From the NCBI GenBank assembly GCA_964553885.1, contig CAZKLP010000004.1, positions 1-36,723 on the forward strand: a stretch of 36,723 bases of DNA, written 5' to 3'. The notes beneath the pieces were generated by a model, which saw only the letters and a program-made list of their open reading frames with translations, ran no database searches and had not been told where the DNA came from. The translations under genes were made by a program, and so were the position numbers. Shown here in pieces: positions 6,157 through 30,215 of the stretch (position 1 is the stretch's first letter; each line of letters begins with the position of its first letter). This DNA is from an uncultured Candidatus Saccharibacteria bacterium. Lineage in GTDB: Bacteria; Patescibacteriota; Minisyncoccia; UBA10092.

Positions 6157-6807
6157 ATGTATCCTAAACCAATCCAAAATTTTATTGAAAAGTTTTCAAA
6201 ATTGCCAGGCGTTGGCCCGCGTCAGGCCGCCCGATTGGCTTTTTGGCTGCTTAATGGCCCGAAAGAAATTCGCCAAAATATAAAGCATGCGCTTGAGAGT
6301 TTGGATAAAGATGCTCGAACGTGCGAGTTATGCCATTATGTAATTGAAAATAATGGAAATAATCAATGCCATTTTTGCGACAATCCCACGCGCGACCACG
6401 CGATTATTTGCGTTGTTGAAAAAGAAACCGACTTGGCAACCATTGAAAAATCCGAAGCTTATAAGGGCCTATATCATGTTTTAGGCGGATTATTTTCGGC
6501 TCTGGATACCTCGGTGCCAAAAAATCTGAAAATACCGGAGCTCGTAAAAAGAATTGAAAATTCTCAGTCAAAGGCGGACCAGTTTCTGGCTGGAAAAAAA
6601 GGCGATAAAAAAATAGAAGAAATCATCTTGGCAATTTCTCCCACTCACGAAGGAGATTTAACCGCTTATTATTTGGAAAAATTATTAAAACCGCTAAAAG
6701 TCAAAATAACCCGCCTCGGGCGAGGCCTTCCTTACGGCTCCGACGTGGAATTCGCCGACGCCAAAACTTTATCGGGAGCTCTCGAAAATAGAAAAGAAAT
6801 AAAATAA
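6157..6807 (+). CDS. recR: Recombination protein RecR
   Basis: HhH motif LPGVGPRQAARLAF, Cys4 finger CELC..CHFC, Toprim segment ICVVEKETDL. Carries an extra segment NSQSKADQFLAGKKGDKK. Confidence 0.9.
   Translation: MYPKPIQNFIEKFSKLPGVGPRQAARLAFWLLNGPKEIRQNIKHALESLDKDARTCELCHYVIENNGNNQCHFCDNPTRDHAIICVVEKETDLATIEKSEAYKGLYHVLGGLFSALDTSVPKNLKIPELVKRIENSQSKADQFLAGKKGDKKIEEIILAISPTHEGDLTAYYLEKLLKPLKVKITRLGRGLPYGSDVEFADAKTLSGALENRKEIK
6561..6596 (+). repeat. GC-rich twin-hairpin mini-element, copy R (inside recR)
   Basis: ttctcagtcaaaggcggaccagtttctggctggaaa. It shares an exact 14-mer (caaaggcggaccag) and an exact 11-mer (tctggctggaa) with the ddl copy. Confidence 0.85.
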
Positions 6808-6826
6808 CCCCGCAGTTGCGGGGTTA
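6805..6826. terminator. Bidirectional hairpin between recR and rplU
   Basis: taaccccgca-gt-tgcggggtta, flanked by A and T runs. Confidence 0.7.
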
Positions 6827-7507: not shown

Positions 7508-7600
7508 AATAATATTAAGATTTTAAAATTGTAGGTGGGGTCGTGCCGTCCCGCCGCAGGCGGGATGGGGCTACGATAATTTTAAAATTTTAATATTATT
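7508..7600. repeat. Composite hairpin: 23-bp AT-rich inverted repeat enclosing a GC-rich core
   Basis: The arms 7508-7530 and 7578-7600 match at 22 of 23 positions. The core contains tcccgcc-gcag-gcggga. The right arm overlaps the last codons and stop of the presenilin-like gene. Confidence 0.7.
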
Positions 7601-8545: not shown

Positions 8546-8564
8546 AAAGCCCCCAAGGGGCTTT
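8546..8564 (-). terminator. Hairpin plus T-run after the phosphorylase gene
   Basis: aaagcccc-caa-ggggcttt immediately after the stop at 8565. Confidence 0.65.
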
Positions 8565-11128: not shown

Positions 11129-12355
11129 ATGAATTCAACTCGCAATCTTTTATATCTTCTTCAGCTTGAAGAATATGATTTAAAACGCTTTAATGCTTGG
11201 TTAAAAAATAATCCCGGCCGCGTTGTTTTAGAAAAAAAAAGGAGAATTGACTGGACACTGAAAGCGCGACTAATTTTCATTATGTCCGGATTTTTTAGTA
11301 TTTTTACAAATGGACCAATGGCGATTAGAACGGCAACAAAAGTTTTGTCGCCAGTTGATGCTTTGGCCAAAAAAATTTTAGTGTTTCTGGCAAATCATAA
11401 AATAAATAAAATATCCGGCTTAACCGTTATTGGCATAACCGGCTCTTACGGAAAAACGACAACCAAAAACGCAATCGCACATGTATTAATACATAAATAT
11501 AAAACGCTAAAAACCGAAGGAAATTATAATACGCCTTTAGGTATCGCCAAAACCATTCTCCGAAATCTCCGGAAAAATCACGAGATTTTTGTCTGCGAAA
11601 TGGCCGCTTACCAAATTGGAGACATTAAAGCAATATCGGAATTAATAAAACCAGAAATTGGAATAGTTACTGCCGTCGGCCCAATGCATCTTGAAAGATT
11701 TGGTTCAGAAGAAAATATTCTAAAAACAAAGTTAGAACTTATTGAGTCGCTTCCAGAAAAAGGCATTGGTTTTCTGCCTAAAGAGTTAGAACCTCAATTA
11801 TCCAAATACTACCATAATCCAAATTATGGGAGTAAATGTAAAATAGAATTTTTTTCTTCAAAAGAAGAATTGATTATAAAAATCGGAAAATTTTTTGATA
11901 TGACGGAAGAAGAAATTTTTGGATATATTAAAACCGCGCCGCCAACTCCCCATCGGCAACAGATTATTAAAACTTCGGCCGGCATTACGATTATTGACGA
12001 TACTTATAATTCCAATCCGGCCGGATTTAATTCGGCTTTAGAACTTCTGAAAAACACTCCGGCACAAAGAAGAATTCTGGTTACGCCGGGGATGATTGAA
12101 CTTGGCAAAAAACAATTTGAATTAAATAAAGAAGCGGCGCGAAGCGCCGCAAAAATCGCCGACTATATAATCATAGTCGGCGAAACAAACAAAAAAGCGC
12201 TTAGAGAAGGATTGAAAGAAGTTTATGGGAACGATTATATTTCTAAAGTTTATGAAGTGATTGATTTAGACGCGGCCAAATCAAAACTTTCCGAACTCAC
12301 AATCCCCAATTCTGCAATTTTACTGGAAAACGACCTTCCCGATCATTATTTTTAA
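11129..12355 (+). CDS. murF: Mur ligase, MurF-like (UDP-MurNAc-tripeptide--D-Ala-D-Ala ligase)
   Basis: GITGSYGKTTTK P-loop and DDTYNSNP. Convergent with ddl. The N-terminal ~90 aa are atypical. Confidence 0.75.
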   Translation: MNSTRNLLYLLQLEEYDLKRFNAWLKNNPGRVVLEKKRRIDWTLKARLIFIMSGFFSIFTNGPMAIRTATKVLSPVDALAKKILVFLANHKINKISGLTVIGITGSYGKTTTKNAIAHVLIHKYKTLKTEGNYNTPLGIAKTILRNLRKNHEIFVCEMAAYQIGDIKAISELIKPEIGIVTAVGPMHLERFGSEENILKTKLELIESLPEKGIGFLPKELEPQLSKYYHNPNYGSKCKIEFFSSKEELIIKIGKFFDMTEEEIFGYIKTAPPTPHRQQIIKTSAGITIIDDTYNSNPAGFNSALELLKNTPAQRRILVTPGMIELGKKQFELNKEAARSAAKIADYIIIVGETNKKALREGLKEVYGNDYISKVYEVIDLDAAKSKLSELTIPNSAILLENDLPDHYF

Positions 12356-13530
12356 CGCTTAGCGCCGCCGACTTTTGAAATCAAATTGGAATCGTAACTG
12401 AAAGTCAGTTCTTGGCGTTTTTTGTGGCATTCGAAGCCAAGATTTATAAGCCGGTCTAACAATTCACTAAAACTAACCCCGGATTTTTCCCAGAGATAAA
12501 AAGATAAAGAACCCGGTAGAGTATTTATTTCAGTTATCCAAAAATCTTCGGTATCGAGACGAACCATAAAATCAACGCGGGCAATGCCCGCGGCATCAAT
12601 CGCCCAAAACGCTTTTTTTGCCGTTTCCTGAATTTTTTTAGTCAGTTCTTCGCTTATCGGCGCCGGCACAAATCGCGACAAACCAGCCATGCCTTTAATT
12701 TTGCCATCTTTCAAGTATTTATCTTCATAAGAAAGCATTTGTTCGCCTTTTATCGGCTGTTCGCAAACCGAGGCGATTAGTTCGTCGTTGCCCATCACCG
12801 AACAATTGATTTCAATAATTCCCTCTTTTCCCTCTTCAACAATAATCCGCCTGTCAAAACTGGAAGCGATTTCTATAGCGCTTTCCAGTTCTTTCAAGCC
12901 AGCGGCTTTGTTTATGGCAATACTTGAGCCTAAATTTGCCGGCTTAACAAAAACCGGATAACCAAGAGTTTCTTCAATATGTTTGATAATTCTGATCTTG
13001 TCGTTTTGCCATTCGTTTTTTAAAAACCAAACGTACTTCACAACCGGAATGTTATTATCTTTAAAAGCCGATTTTTGAATAATTTTATCCATGCCGACAG
13101 CCGAACCAGTAACGCCGCTTCCGATATAAGGAACGTCTGCCATTTCAAATATGCCTTGAATCGTCCCATCTTCACCATACGTGCCGTGAATAACGGGAAA
13201 ATAAATATCGGCTTTGATACTCTTAAAAAATTTAAACGCCGATTTCGGCGAAAGCGCTTTACTGCTTGGCGACGCTTCAAAAAAATATTCCTGCGCTTTT
13301 ATAGACGAATTCTTCCAGCCAGAGGCTGGTCCGCCTTTGGCGGAAAAACTCTCAATTTTCCCGAGCTTTTCATCAACCAGCCAGCGCCCTTTCTTATCTA
13401 TATAAACCGGAATAATATCATATTTATCGCGATTTATATTTTCAAAAACCTGCATCGCCGTCACAATAGAAACTTCATGCTCTACCGAGCGACTTCCGAA
13501 CACTATTGCGACTTTTAGTTTATTTGCCAT
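12352..13530 (-). CDS. ddl: D-alanine--D-alanine ligase
   Basis: KVAIVFGSRSVEHEVSIVTA, HGTYGEDGTIQG, ATP-grasp C-terminal half. Longer than usual, with an extra segment around SFSAKGGPASGWK. Confidence 0.92.
   Translation of the reverse strand: MANKLKVAIVFGSRSVEHEVSIVTAMQVFENINRDKYDIIPVYIDKKGRWLVDEKLGKIESFSAKGGPASGWKNSSIKAQEYFFEASPSSKALSPKSAFKFFKSIKADIYFPVIHGTYGEDGTIQGIFEMADVPYIGSGVTGSAVGMDKIIQKSAFKDNNIPVVKYVWFLKNEWQNDKIRIIKHIEETLGYPVFVKPANLGSSIAINKAAGLKELESAIEIASSFDRRIIVEEGKEGIIEINCSVMGNDELIASVCEQPIKGEQMLSYEDKYLKDGKIKGMAGLSRFVPAPISEELTKKIQETAKKAFWAIDAAGIARVDFMVRLDTEDFWITEINTLPGSLSFYLWEKSGVSFSELLDRLINLGFECHKKRQELTFSYDSNLISKVGGAKR
13312..13348 (-). repeat. GC-rich twin-hairpin mini-element, copy Y (inside ddl)
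   Basis: Minus strand reads tttttccgccaaaggcggaccagcctctggctggaag. It forms two perfect 6-bp hairpins, tccgcc-aaa-ggcgga and ccagcc-tct-ggctgg. Confidence 0.85.
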
Positions 13531-18772: not shown

Positions 18773-18808
18773 TTTTTCAGCCATAGGCGGATCAGCCTCT
18801 GGCTGAAA
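18773..18808 (+). repeat. GC-rich twin-hairpin mini-element, copy X (rplJ 3' end and rplJ-rplL spacer)
   Basis: tttttcagccataggcggatcagcctctggctgaaa. It matches the ddl copy at 32 of 36 positions by hand alignment. It contains the last five codons and the TGA stop of rplJ, read on the opposite strand. Confidence 0.85.
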
Positions 18809-19340
18809 ATTTACCTTTTATCTGAGTTAACACATTAATTAAATCGCGCGTATTGCCGAAAAGTACATTAACCAGTTCTATAAGAGGAGAAGCAATTATG
18901 CTAACAACGCGGCCGAGCAAAATTTCACGAGACGGCAGTTTTGCTATCTCTATAATTTCTGTTTTGTCATGCCAATTAAAACCTATAAAGCCGCCTAAAA
19001 TTTTTAACGCTTCATTTCCGCCCTTGGCGGCAATTTTTGAAAACTTGAAAATAGAACTGGCCGCCGGCACCGGATCGCCATAGCTGAAAACAACCCCCAC
19101 TTGCGTTTTTAATTTATCAAGATCAATACCTTTATAATCACCTAATTTTAAAACACGGCTTATCAATGTTTTTTTAGAAACTTTATACTCGGCGCCTATT
19201 TGTTTAAGCAAACGGCGCAATTCCATTGTTTTAGCAACGGAGAGTTTATTAAAATCAACCAAAATCGCCGCCTTGGCCCGGCTAAACTTGTCGGTTAAAT
19301 CTTTCAAAATATTATCTTTTTTTTCTCGCGTAATGGCCAT
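18792..19340 (-). CDS. rplJ: 50S ribosomal protein L10
   Basis: MAITREKKDNILKDLTDKFSRAKAAILVDFNKLSVAKTMELRRLL. Start trimmed to the ATG at 19340. Confidence 0.92.
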   Translation of the reverse strand: MAITREKKDNILKDLTDKFSRAKAAILVDFNKLSVAKTMELRRLLKQIGAEYKVSKKTLISRVLKLGDYKGIDLDKLKTQVGVVFSYGDPVPAASSIFKFSKIAAKGGNEALKILGGFIGFNWHDKTEIIEIAKLPSREILLGRVVSIIASPLIELVNVLFGNTRDLINVLTQIKGKFSARG

Positions 19341-19443
19341 AAAAAAATACGAGCAAACGCCCGCAGACACAAAACACATAAATGTCTTGATAATCCTCGG
19401 AGGGGCTTCTGCCTTTTGTCTGACCGCCCTCTGTCTGCGGAAT
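19341..19443 (-). promoter_or_regulatory. ~100-nt structured 5' leader of rplJ (possible L10 autoregulatory leader)
   Basis: GC-rich hairpin-forming segment between the predicted promoter and the rplJ ATG. Not matched to a covariance model. Confidence 0.3.
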
Positions 19444-22456: not shown

Positions 22457-22479
22457 AAAACTCCGGTTATCGGAGTTTT
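22457..22479 (-). terminator. Rho-independent terminator of guaB
   Basis: Minus strand reads aaaactccg-ataac-cggagtttt followed by a T-run, starting 4 nt after the guaB TAG. Confidence 0.75.
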
Positions 22480-25552: not shown

Positions 25553-26332
25553 TCAAATCGTTTTTTGATGTTTCTTTCGCCATTCCTCCCGCCCATTATG
25601 GGCGAGGCTCGACTGGCGAGCTTCTCGCCAGGCGGCTATTTTTTTATGATTCCCGGAAAGAAGAACTTTTGGAACGGCGTATTTTTTATCGCGCTTGCCC
25701 CGCCCTGGCGATGACCATTTGAAAACTTCCGGACGGGTGTAAACCGGAACGCCAACTCCAAATCGCTTTTCTTCAAGCGATTCGTTTTTTCCCAAAACAC
25801 CGGTAATATGACGCGATACCGCGTCAATAACAACCATCGCCGGAAGTTCGCCTCCGGTAAGAACATATGGACCTATGGATATTTCACCAAAATTAAAACC
25901 TAAATTCTGAATAATTTTTTTAATCCTGTCATCAACTCCTTCGTAGTGGCCGGCAATCATTATTATATGATCATATTTTTTTGAGAGTTCTGTGGCCATT
26001 TTTGAATCAAATTGCTTTCCGGCCACTGAAAACAGCACAACCTTAATTCCTGCGGCCGCAGGAATTAAGGTTTGATTAGTTTTTCTTTTTAAATTATTTT
26101 TTCGTTTTAAAATTGAATAGAGCGCTTTTGCAAGCGGCTCGATTTTGAAAACCATCCCCGGACCGCCGCCGAAGGGTTTATCATCAACTTTATTGTGTTT
26201 ATCGGTTGAAAATTTTCTTAAATCAATAATATTTATATTTATCTTCCCGTTTTTTTGGGCGCGCCGAATTATACTCTCATTTAAATAAGATTCAAAAATT
26301 TTTGGGAAAATTGTTATAACGTCAAATTTCAT
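25553..26332 (-). CDS. trmD: tRNA (guanine37-N1)-methyltransferase TrmD
   Basis: MKFDVITIFPKIFESYL, DDKPFGGGPGMV, LTGGELPAMVVIDAV. Has an extra segment between the conserved blocks. Confidence 0.93.
   Translation of the reverse strand: MKFDVITIFPKIFESYLNESIIRRAQKNGKININIIDLRKFSTDKHNKVDDKPFGGGPGMVFKIEPLAKALYSILKRKNNLKRKTNQTLIPAAAGIKVVLFSVAGKQFDSKMATELSKKYDHIIMIAGHYEGVDDRIKKIIQNLGFNFGEISIGPYVLTGGELPAMVVIDAVSRHITGVLGKNESLEEKRFGVGVPVYTRPEVFKWSSPGRGKRDKKYAVPKVLLSGNHKKIAAWREARQSSLAHNGREEWRKKHQKTI
26039..26072. repeat. 34-bp perfect palindrome inside trmD (NotI-site centre)
   Basis: aaccttaattcctgcgg|ccgcaggaattaaggtt, translated as TLIPAAAGIKV in the trmD extra segment. Confidence 0.9.
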
Positions 26333-29927: not shown

Positions 29928-30215
29928 TTATTCTAAAATTGCGAGGATCTCTTCCTCTTTTAAAATTTTATAATCAACACCGCCGATTTTAAATTCGGTG
30001 CCGCTGTATTTTTCATAAACCACTTCGTCGCCCTTTTTAACGCCGGATTTTTTTATTTTTTCACCCGCTCCAACCGCCACCACCCGGCCCTGGGCCGGTT
30101 TTTCCTTATCTACCGTTTCCGGCAAAATAATGCCCGATTTGGTTTTTTCCGTTTCTTTTATCGGCGCGATAACCGCCCGATCACCTAAAGGTTTAATTGA
30201 TAATTGTCTTGCCAT
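29928..30215 (-). CDS. groES: Co-chaperonin GroES
   Basis: [27 protein letters not shown]. Confidence 0.97.

Follow-up and report, generated by a model that had tools for sequence, protein, structure and literature searches.

The recR gene in a 36,723-nt stretch of contig CAZKLP010000004.1 (the window; all copy coordinates are counted within it) carries a solo copy, now decaying, of a mobile DNA element that is 30 nt long, non-autonomous and built of two small hairpins. Two more copies lie in the window, in ddl and at the 3' end of rplJ, and many others occur in the genomes of other bacteria. We hold it highly probable that the element is a mobile insertion that is translated and decaying. 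Comparisons of sequence also lead us to favour, with more reserve, a wider model in which this double hairpin would be a non-autonomous mobile element riding on DNA breaks made by a homing-endonuclease-like gene that targets transfer RNA (tRNA) genes.

Three copies in the window

A 26-nt consensus, allowing up to three mismatches, finds three sites in the window against 0.00 expected from 100 dinucleotide-preserving shuffles, and an nhmmer profile built from these three copies found no fourth in the window. An earlier, sequence-only reading of this DNA had placed three related sequences at these sites and had spoken of a three-copy family; the count is right for the window, but the family is far larger elsewhere. 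The copies and their host genes are as follows.

6157..6807, plus strand: recR open reading frame (ORF), 216 aa, host of the first copy (Pfam RecR_HhH, Toprim_4 and RecR_C; ortholog alignment)
6562..6563, plus strand: left target dinucleotide TC of the recR copy (present in the empty orthologous site)
6564..6593, plus strand: recR copy of the 30-nt double-hairpin element (consensus and profile match; filled versus empty orthologous sites)
12352..13530, minus strand: ddl ORF, 392 aa, host of the second copy (Pfam Dala_Dala_lig_N and Dala_Dala_lig_C)
13315..13344, minus strand: ddl copy, an intact consensus C-G variant (consensus match; DNA fold; ortholog comparison)
18777..18806, plus strand: rplJ-rplL copy, a variant with the first 5' arm TCAGCC (consensus and profile match; folds)
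18792..19379, minus strand: rplJ (L10) ORF, whose 3' end is supplied by the element (Pfam Ribosomal_L10; translation)

The boundaries of the element, and hence its size of 30 nt, are set by filled and empty recR sites. Empty sites read GAAAATTC|ACAAAAAAA and filled ones GAAAATTC[30 nt]AAAAAA, so that the insertion falls between TC and A as an exact gain of 30 nt with zero duplicated bases. The sequence-only reading had recognised a real element and drawn it too long, at 36 nt; its extra bases are target flanks. Within the 30 nt lie two 15-nt GC-rich modules, each a 6-bp stem with a 3-nt loop, of the form TCCGCC-NNN-GGCGGA followed by (T/C)CAGCC-NNN-GGCTG(A/G), with an invariant apex GCC-NNN-GGC. 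The ddl copy reads TCCGCC AAA GGCGGA / CCAGCC TCT GGCTGG, and the decayed recR copy TCAGTC AAA GGCGGA / CCAGTT TCT GGCTGG.

Close RecR orthologs (74-88% identical) are typically 205-206 aa long. Of the 22 close orthologs aligned, 3 have the 10-residue insert, which sits in a linker within the Toprim region: the window protein and two relatives. It lies exactly at the element, bearing out the earlier suspicion that this segment is absent from typical RecR. The carriers form a small Azambacteria-like clade. Among their three orthologous copies the arms differ by C>T and G>A changes, the copy of L123 being nearest the consensus and that of the window the most eroded, which indicates that the recR copy is no longer maintained and is eroding by such changes.

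The ddl copy occupies an insertion-tolerant loop of the Ddl N-terminal domain, where SAKGGPASGW-like inserts occur at one point, after AGTTT, in 5 of 116 Ddl orthologs; the lineage-specific insertions that the sequence-only reading had expected in RecR and Ddl are thus found in both. In another Ddl ortholog (P0141), 30 nt have been inserted independently at a point 8 nt further along; this insert is read in a different frame, as PPKADSPMAK, and has TTCGCC-TAT-GGCGAA as its second module. Taken together, the alignments indicate that one Ddl surface loop has been struck at least twice by 30-nt insertions. Unrelated short inserts fill the same loop in other Ddl orthologs. Short lineage-specific inserts of other kinds are also seen in both proteins, in RecR orthologs P0033, P0052, P0100, P0110 and P0113 (such as DSSTS..LTIK, LPAGRHG and SAGRQ) and in Ddl orthologs P0124 and P0166 (such as NPLKFWKNF and NPPKFWRKFRR); these resemble translations of other palindromic elements, for example CCTGCCGGCAGG and CCGCCAAAATTTTGGCGG.

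Read in its host, the recR copy supplies ten codons for SQSKADQFLA within the peptide SQSKADQFLAGK, and the ddl copy supplies SAKGGPASGW within FSAKGGPASGWK. The two are read one frame apart, as the sequence-only reading had it, and since the same nucleotides appear in different frames the similarity lies at the nucleic-acid level and not in the proteins. No ortholog in these alignments was found to encode the same peptides with unrelated nucleotides.

The third copy does not lie within the L10 gene and overlaps only its end: on the minus strand it encodes the last five codons of rplJ (FSARG) and its TGA stop, and the remainder falls in the rplJ-rplL spacer, the L7/L12 gene lying downstream of the L10 gene (Pfam). 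A lookup with the window's L7/L12 protein gave no empty rplJ-rplL spacer in relatives, and comparisons of filled and empty sites cover the recR, ddl and tRNA copies.

The copies fold differently. The ddl copy forms a clean twin hairpin as DNA (-12.4 kcal/mol, z = -3.5). The rplJ-end copy, owing to its TCAGCC arm, favours one long hairpin, with z-scores of -6.2 to -6.9. The recR copy folds like its shuffles (z = 0.0 as DNA, -1.7 as RNA), and the proposal that its second hairpin is preserved through G-U pairs gives way to neutral decay as the better reading.

Other hairpins are frequent in this DNA. Where shuffles lead one to expect 2.3 perfect GC-rich 6-bp hairpins with loops of 3-5 nt, the window has 35. 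Terminator-like examples lie at 6808-6823 (just after recR), 8547-8563, 22460-22476 and 30084-30098; two are inside ORFs (12134-12150 and 12576-12592), others are paired at 25590-25630, and the one at 7549-7565 (TCCCGCC GCA GGCGGGA) has the family apex GCC-NNN-GGC.

A dispersed family and its copies inside genes

Scanning a 596-Gb collection, one genome per species, with an exact pattern of the element yielded at least 120 loci. Among the matches listed, about 100 carry the full two-hairpin core in unrelated flanks and about 10 lack the first hairpin; by our own estimate, chance alone would give about 9 matches in 596 Gb. The fetched sequences, searched with a profile, yield at least 151 copies in 125 loci, also with unrelated flanks; their loops vary freely and their stems are nearly fixed. 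There is recombination among modules (CCGCC+CCGCC, CAGCC+CAGCC), and some are strung into chains of three to five. Further copies, which the sequence-only reading had made a test of its proposal, therefore exist in many other genomes, both inside and outside ORFs.

Among the matches listed, record labels name many classes of Patescibacteria as well as Omnitrophota, Planctomycetota, Elusimicrobia, Bacteroidota, Chloroflexota/Dehalococcoidia, Stahlbacteria, Binatia, Bdellovibrio-like bacteria and several 'Pseudomonadota' metagenome-assembled genomes (MAGs). The loci range from 35 to 67.5% GC, so the family is not merely mis-binned Patescibacteria DNA. Rfam 15, searched at gathering and at permissive thresholds, gave no match at the copies even at E up to 10, the only matches in the window being two tRNAs. 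The exact core was absent from IMG/VR viral contigs, BLAST found no match to the element in PLSDB plasmids or INPHARED phages, and the nuclease described below had no match in phages; these searches therefore point to no phage or plasmid vector. No published description turned up for the core sequence or related concepts in the literature covered, and the family is apparently undescribed.

In some MAGs from outside the Patescibacteria the element stands at the apex of longer, dispersed, lineage-specific inverted or direct repeats (L003, L043, L045, L054 and L069, from one MAG; L023, L030, L051, L087 and L088; L014, L061, L094, L095, L021 and L120), such as GGATCCCCGC...GCGGGGATGAC or, in Omnitrophota, TTCGGATTT...CGTGCTTCGGATTT. 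At L017 (3774-3922), two inverted copies about 100 nt apart make a long hairpin like that of a REPIN (a doublet of repetitive extragenic palindromes, REPs), which gives spurious sub-threshold matches to plant microRNA precursor models.

Insertion sites share a short motif. Among the matches listed (n = 107 copies), T stands at position -2 in 90%, T or C at position -1 in 96% and a purine at position +2 in 97%. All three are retained in empty sites and so belong to the target and not to the element; insertion is mostly at 5'-TY^NR-3', and no target duplication is seen at the recR, ddl or tRNA copies.

The twin-hairpin structure is under constraint. Under RNA parameters, intact copies have a single long hairpin as their lowest-energy fold, because the two modules are near-complementary. 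We compared the two structures in 38 distinct copies ascertained solely through a neighbouring nuclease protein gene. The twin-hairpin model pairs 97-99% of the alignment cells, with compensatory changes at three pairs; 22 cells show double changes against 11.1 +/- 3.8 in shuffles, and 0 of 500 shuffles reach 22. The long hairpin shows zero compensatory change, and one of its pairs is broken in 34 of the 38 copies. Covariation, which the sequence-only reading had called for, thus supports the twin hairpin. A purely structural scan of the protein-fetched loci finds 69 adjacent 6-3-6 hairpin pairs whose 5' arms fit YNNGCC. At the closing pair of the second hairpin (positions 16 and 30, the latter outside the search pattern), the matches listed have T-A in 64 copies and C-G in 38, and 3 are unpaired.

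Copies inside genes appear to be translated. Among the matches listed, 31 of 136 copies fall within long ORFs, which belong to 23 unrelated gene families. The SAKGGPASGW frame dominates these copies (L002-L115 and the window's ddl), though all six frames of the C-G variant are open. In that frame the T-A variant bears a TGA stop, and it is found in 0 of 17 canonical ORF copies, whereas most copies outside ORFs are T-A; by our own calculation the chance of this is about 1e-10. Because the stop-containing variant is avoided, ORF copies are taken to be translated, and this avoidance, the 30-nt length and the frameshift-free decay together disfavour removal at the RNA level. Being 30 nt, or ten codons, the insert keeps the reading frame. 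From the family-wide avoidance of the stop we infer that the ribosome reads through the recR copy, too, so that the linker gains SQSKADQFLA.

Two other host proteins recur. In four Patescibacteria lineages (L008, L036, L115 and L124, the last at 2409-2449) the element lies in the glycine/phenylalanine-rich linker of DnaJ, and MiaA carries it at one shared point in two loci (L029 and L050).

The neighbouring GIY-YIG nuclease and its tRNA cassette

We clustered the ORFs within 2 kb of copies in the hairpin-selected set (120 loci, 869 kb). Among the matches listed, the only recurrent neighbour family is a protein of about 80 aa, present at 11 loci, which matches GIY-YIG nucleases (Pfam PF01541, E 1e-13 to 1e-16) and has Y6, Y17, G19, R28, H32 and E64 as invariant residues, in keeping with the conserved Tyr, Tyr, Arg, His and Glu of the GIY-YIG catalytic domain. 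Its nearest solved relatives by sequence are PDB 1zg2 and 1ywl, both UPF0213. Its database names say no more than 'GIY-YIG nuclease family protein' or similar, and the family comprises 4126 50%-identity clusters at E <= 1e-3. A single-sequence AlphaFold model of it was too poor to use, with a pLDDT (predicted local distance difference test) of 57. Nine of the 11 nuclease genes in the 869 kb lie within 130 nt of a hairpin copy.

The association also holds in a set of 80 metagenome loci fetched by the nuclease protein alone, so as to avoid selection through the hairpin. A hairpin lies within 150 nt upstream of the nuclease gene, in either orientation, in 58 of the 76 genes with enough upstream sequence, and its end is mostly some 10-35 nt from the start codon. 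Immediately downstream, on the same strand, comes a tRNA gene in 67 of 71 cases with enough sequence. Fifty-four of these tRNA genes are intact, and the other 13 consist of a 5' exon and a group I intron motif, 9 of the 11 tested matching RF00028 at 60-91 bits. The intron-bearing tRNA-Asn genes beside the nuclease have ORF-less introns in the anticodon loop (L150 1775-2005, L147 1749-1996 and L139 1868-2149, within the set L125-L204) and are missed by ARAGORN.

Upstream of the nuclease lies a partial 5' copy of the tRNA that follows it, with the hairpin inside, and alignment to the intact tRNA shows exactly 30 nt gained. The hairpin is inserted after tRNA nucleotides 8, 12, 17/18, 28/29 or 36/37. 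Homology to the tRNA runs for 3-15 nt (median 9) past the hairpin and then stops at the cassette junction, and in most cassettes 9-39 nt separate the hairpin from the nuclease start codon. The pseudo-exon of tRNA-Asn cassettes stops at GGCTGT|, exactly the group I intron site of the intron-bearing neighbours.

Fuller cassettes (L196, L128, L189 and L187) have the order pseudo 5' part with hairpin and a few nt, nuclease, intact tRNA, about 20 nt, and then a few nt, hairpin and pseudo 3' part to the acceptor end. This layout reads as a hairpin-bearing tRNA copy that is split by the nuclease and the intact tRNA, with the hairpin and its context duplicated on both sides. At L186 (1095-1760) and L160 (285-1215), two to three tandem units of pseudo-tRNA 5' part, hairpin and nuclease precede one intact tRNA; unequal crossing-over between the 5' copies of the tRNA is their probable origin. 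Remnants without a nuclease are seen at L031, L109 and L112.

Beside more divergent GIY-YIG genes, other hairpin types stand at matching pseudo-tRNA positions (L019 300-370, L041 4420-4470, L160, L176, L195, L201 and L167); among them are CCTGCCTGCCGGTAGGCAGG, types with TTCGCC/CTCGCC stems, and types with CCCGCC stems and long loops. Support for co-divergence of nuclease and hairpin type is weak (p = 0.03). Many nuclease entries (P0362-P0510) carry 20-50 extra N-terminal residues, for example ...SAVGGPASGWGCN-MEYS..., which appear to be gene calls that start too early, through the hairpin and pseudo-tRNA.

Models for the mobility of the hairpin

In the model we propose, the nuclease is predicted to act as a homing-type endonuclease that is free-standing and targets tRNA genes. 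For the hairpin there are two options: it would be a cis-acting end of the cassette or, more probably, a minute hyperparasite that moves into the breaks made by the nuclease, by excision and pasting or by copying. Solo copies in recR, ddl and the end of rplJ would then be off-target events, surviving in tolerant loops or at gene ends, where ten extra residues would be harmless. Placement beside tRNAs, the ORF-less group I introns nearby and a pseudo-exon that ends at the intron site all suggest the behaviour of a homing gene, and the strongest hint of mechanistic coupling is the near-constant offset of about 9 nt between hairpin and junction at five tRNA positions. We put the dependence of hairpin mobility on the nuclease, as suggested by these comparisons, at slightly under an even chance. 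The most specific form of the model is more tentative again: the element as a pan-bacterial hyperparasite of a tRNA-targeting UPF0213 homing endonuclease that would cut tRNA genes and off-target TY^NR sites, the hairpin being inserted there.

Several points weigh against this model or narrow its base. At about 80 aa the nuclease is a bare catalytic domain without the DNA-binding domain of characterised GIY-YIG homing enzymes. The window has three hairpins and, in its 36.7 kb, no GIY-YIG gene, and hairpin orientation relative to the nuclease gene is mixed (38 versus 25). IS200-type Y1 transposase genes, found in 2 of the 80 nuclease loci, leave room for another enzyme, and the hairpin could favour the pseudo-tRNA as a neutral landing pad. 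Copies in ORFs are read in the sense direction in 20 gene families and antisense in 3, an excess that the model does not explain. This bias must arise after insertion, because intergenic copies show none (25 versus 18; all intergenic types, with no positional preference); replication-strand bias was rejected as its cause, GC skew being negative throughout the window while the recR and ddl copies face opposite ways. Finally, the exact-pattern scan favours young, intact copies, so that statements on conservation are safest for the protein-ascertained set, and the phylum labels are those of MAG record titles plus base composition.

The best-surviving alternative, which we consider unlikely, is that the element resembles REPs or the insertion sequences (IS) of the IS200/IS605 type, a single-stranded DNA element moved in trans by a Y1/HUH enzyme (of the REP-associated tyrosine transposase, RAYT, type) or another host enzyme. 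The GIY-YIG link would then be secondary, and the partial tRNA duplicates would be neutral DNA whose TY^NR sites accumulate insertions. There is a real likeness: like REPs, REPINs and IS200/IS605 ends, the element is a short imperfect palindrome occurring in pairs or clusters (twins, multi-hairpin chains and the inverted pairs of L017), inserted without duplication 3' of a short left-flank motif. Hairpins stand in either orientation beside the nuclease gene, pseudo-tRNAs often gather several different hairpin modules, and the IS200-like TnpA genes of the two nuclease loci (L185 915-1292; L178 2-220) are within 1.3 kb of cassettes. Those TnpA genes, however, are flanked by hairpins unrelated to the element, and no Y1 transposase was found within the 120 hairpin-selected loci (869 kb) or among recurrent neighbour families. 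The ends of IS200/IS605 elements such as IS608 depend on guide and cleavage sequences that lie outside the hairpin, and the present element ends at the hairpin feet, leaving no room for cleavage sites set apart from the hairpins. REPs, as generally known, are extragenic and lineage-specific or even species-specific, with a GTAG head, whereas 31 of the 136 copies among the matches listed lie in ORFs. The spacing of about 9 nt between hairpin and junction at five tRNA positions would also be hard to obtain by independent landing.

If instead the copies were selected and not selfish, the element would mainly be a motif with a function in RNA or DNA, retained by the host or the cassette: a 5' stabiliser or processing signal of a nuclease mRNA made from the tRNA promoter, transcription or translation punctuation, or a flexible peptide linker. 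Stems kept by compensatory change, the position of the hairpin 9-39 nt before the nuclease start codon in most cassettes, the rplJ copy exactly at a gene end and the over-representation of the SAKGGPASGW frame in unrelated proteins all fit such a role. The recR copies nonetheless decay freely, most RecR and Ddl orthologs have no insert, and intergenic copies have no preferred position or orientation (25 versus 18). Hairpins have no U-tract after them, Rfam has no match, and either orientation is found upstream of the nuclease gene, all of which makes this explanation improbable.

More improbable still is a mini-intron, removed after transcription so that host proteins and tRNAs are unaffected. 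The element does occur in tRNA-like sequence at D-loop and anticodon-loop positions, beside genuine group I introns, but each hairpin-bearing tRNA piece is a fragment beside an intact copy, ORF copies strictly avoid the stop variant and decay without frameshifts, and the length is a multiple of three; we also know of no ribozyme that 30 nt could hold. Chance similarity or an assembly or sequencing artefact, which mostly short-read MAG assemblies and many very short nuclease contigs might bring to mind, has a negligible chance of being the answer given 0 matches expected in the window, about 10 first-hairpin-less sites among at least 120 matches where about 9 are expected, and orthologous copies with independent substitutions across samples and assemblers.

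Three known motifs were tried and rejected. An intrinsic terminator lacks its U-run here, the sequence that follows on either strand being A-rich and not T-rich; the CUGANGA...GAAA required for a hammerhead-like core is absent; and there are no arrays with spacers as in CRISPR repeats.

Returning to the model of a double hairpin carried by nuclease breaks, we compared it with described elements. Rickettsia palindromic elements (RPEs) are translated, in-frame palindromic repeats that add peptides to tolerant surface regions (PMC10969869). Like them, the present element lies in frame within housekeeping genes that are unrelated to one another, in a reduced and AT-rich genome, and is translated; the sequence-only reading's view of a miniature palindromic element colonising coding sequences, RPE-like and much shorter, holds in every part that could be checked. 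RPEs, however, are about 100-150 bp long, belong to Rickettsia sequence families and have no enzyme gene, whereas the element is 30 nt, five times shorter, found in many phyla and linked to a nuclease and tRNAs. As with a classical miniature inverted-repeat transposable element (MITE), it is non-autonomous and multicopy with unrelated flanks; terminal inverted repeats with a target-site duplication are lacking, and no parent IS with matching ends was found.

Closest in form and company are three mitochondrial element types, while in effect the recR copy acts like an RPE. Double-hairpin elements of Allomyces mitochondria (Paquin, Laforest and Lang 2000, as relayed in PMC4478555 and PMC2800124), the GC clusters of yeast and the repetitive hairpin-forming elements of sponges are likewise short, GC-rich sequences of one or two hairpins in AT-rich genomes. 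They too are dispersed through spacers, rRNA and occasionally protein genes, have shuffling units and lie in genomes that also contain group I introns and genes for homing endonucleases. For the yeast GC clusters, whose units merge and shuffle, intron-encoded endonucleases have been put forward as mobilisers (PMC4478555, PMC2800124). The mitochondrial elements differ in being organellar, of lineage-specific sequence and 26-79 bp or longer, with a putative AG target duplication in the GC clusters; the element described here is in bacterial chromosomes of several phyla, makes no duplication and has a measured link to one nuclease family.

The placement of the cassette matches 'intronless' and 'collaborative' homing layouts (PMC3984707), and phage T4 SegB, a GIY-YIG gene in a tRNA cluster, is a further parallel (PMC2330249). 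As with Seg genes, the GIY-YIG gene is lodged between or beside tRNA genes. Seg and Tev enzymes have at least 200 aa with separate DNA-binding domains, whereas the nuclease here is an ~80-aa UPF0213-type catalytic domain, and its cassette duplicates the tRNA 5' part carrying the hairpin, which is not described for Seg genes. From the same host group, a survey of rRNA genes in the candidate phyla radiation (CPR) reported GIY-YIG ORFs in non-intron insertions and many unexplained ORF-less insertions of <200 bp at the tops or bases of stem-loops (Tsurumaki et al. 2024; PMC11270868). It deals with rRNA genes and describes no conserved hairpin, protein-coding hosts or tRNA cassettes (PMC11270868).

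If the model is right, the widespread and functionally uncharacterised UPF0213 nucleases would be tied to tRNA genes, group I introns and a hairpin, which would give the family its first biological role and a testable cleavage hypothesis; enzyme and substrate lie side by side and are small enough to synthesise. The hairpin would be a bacterial counterpart to the GC-rich hairpin elements of mitochondria, whose mobility mechanism has stayed open for decades, and, together with the ORF-less group I introns, would make for a mitochondria-like mobilome in Patescibacteria and several other phyla. At 30 nt it would perhaps be the smallest known mobile element that inserts in frame, one that writes identical 10-residue peptides into essential proteins. 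One 30-nt sequence would then explain many short insertions in the proteins, and perhaps the rRNAs, of ultra-small bacteria, which would matter for the annotation, alignment and phylogeny of their genomes.

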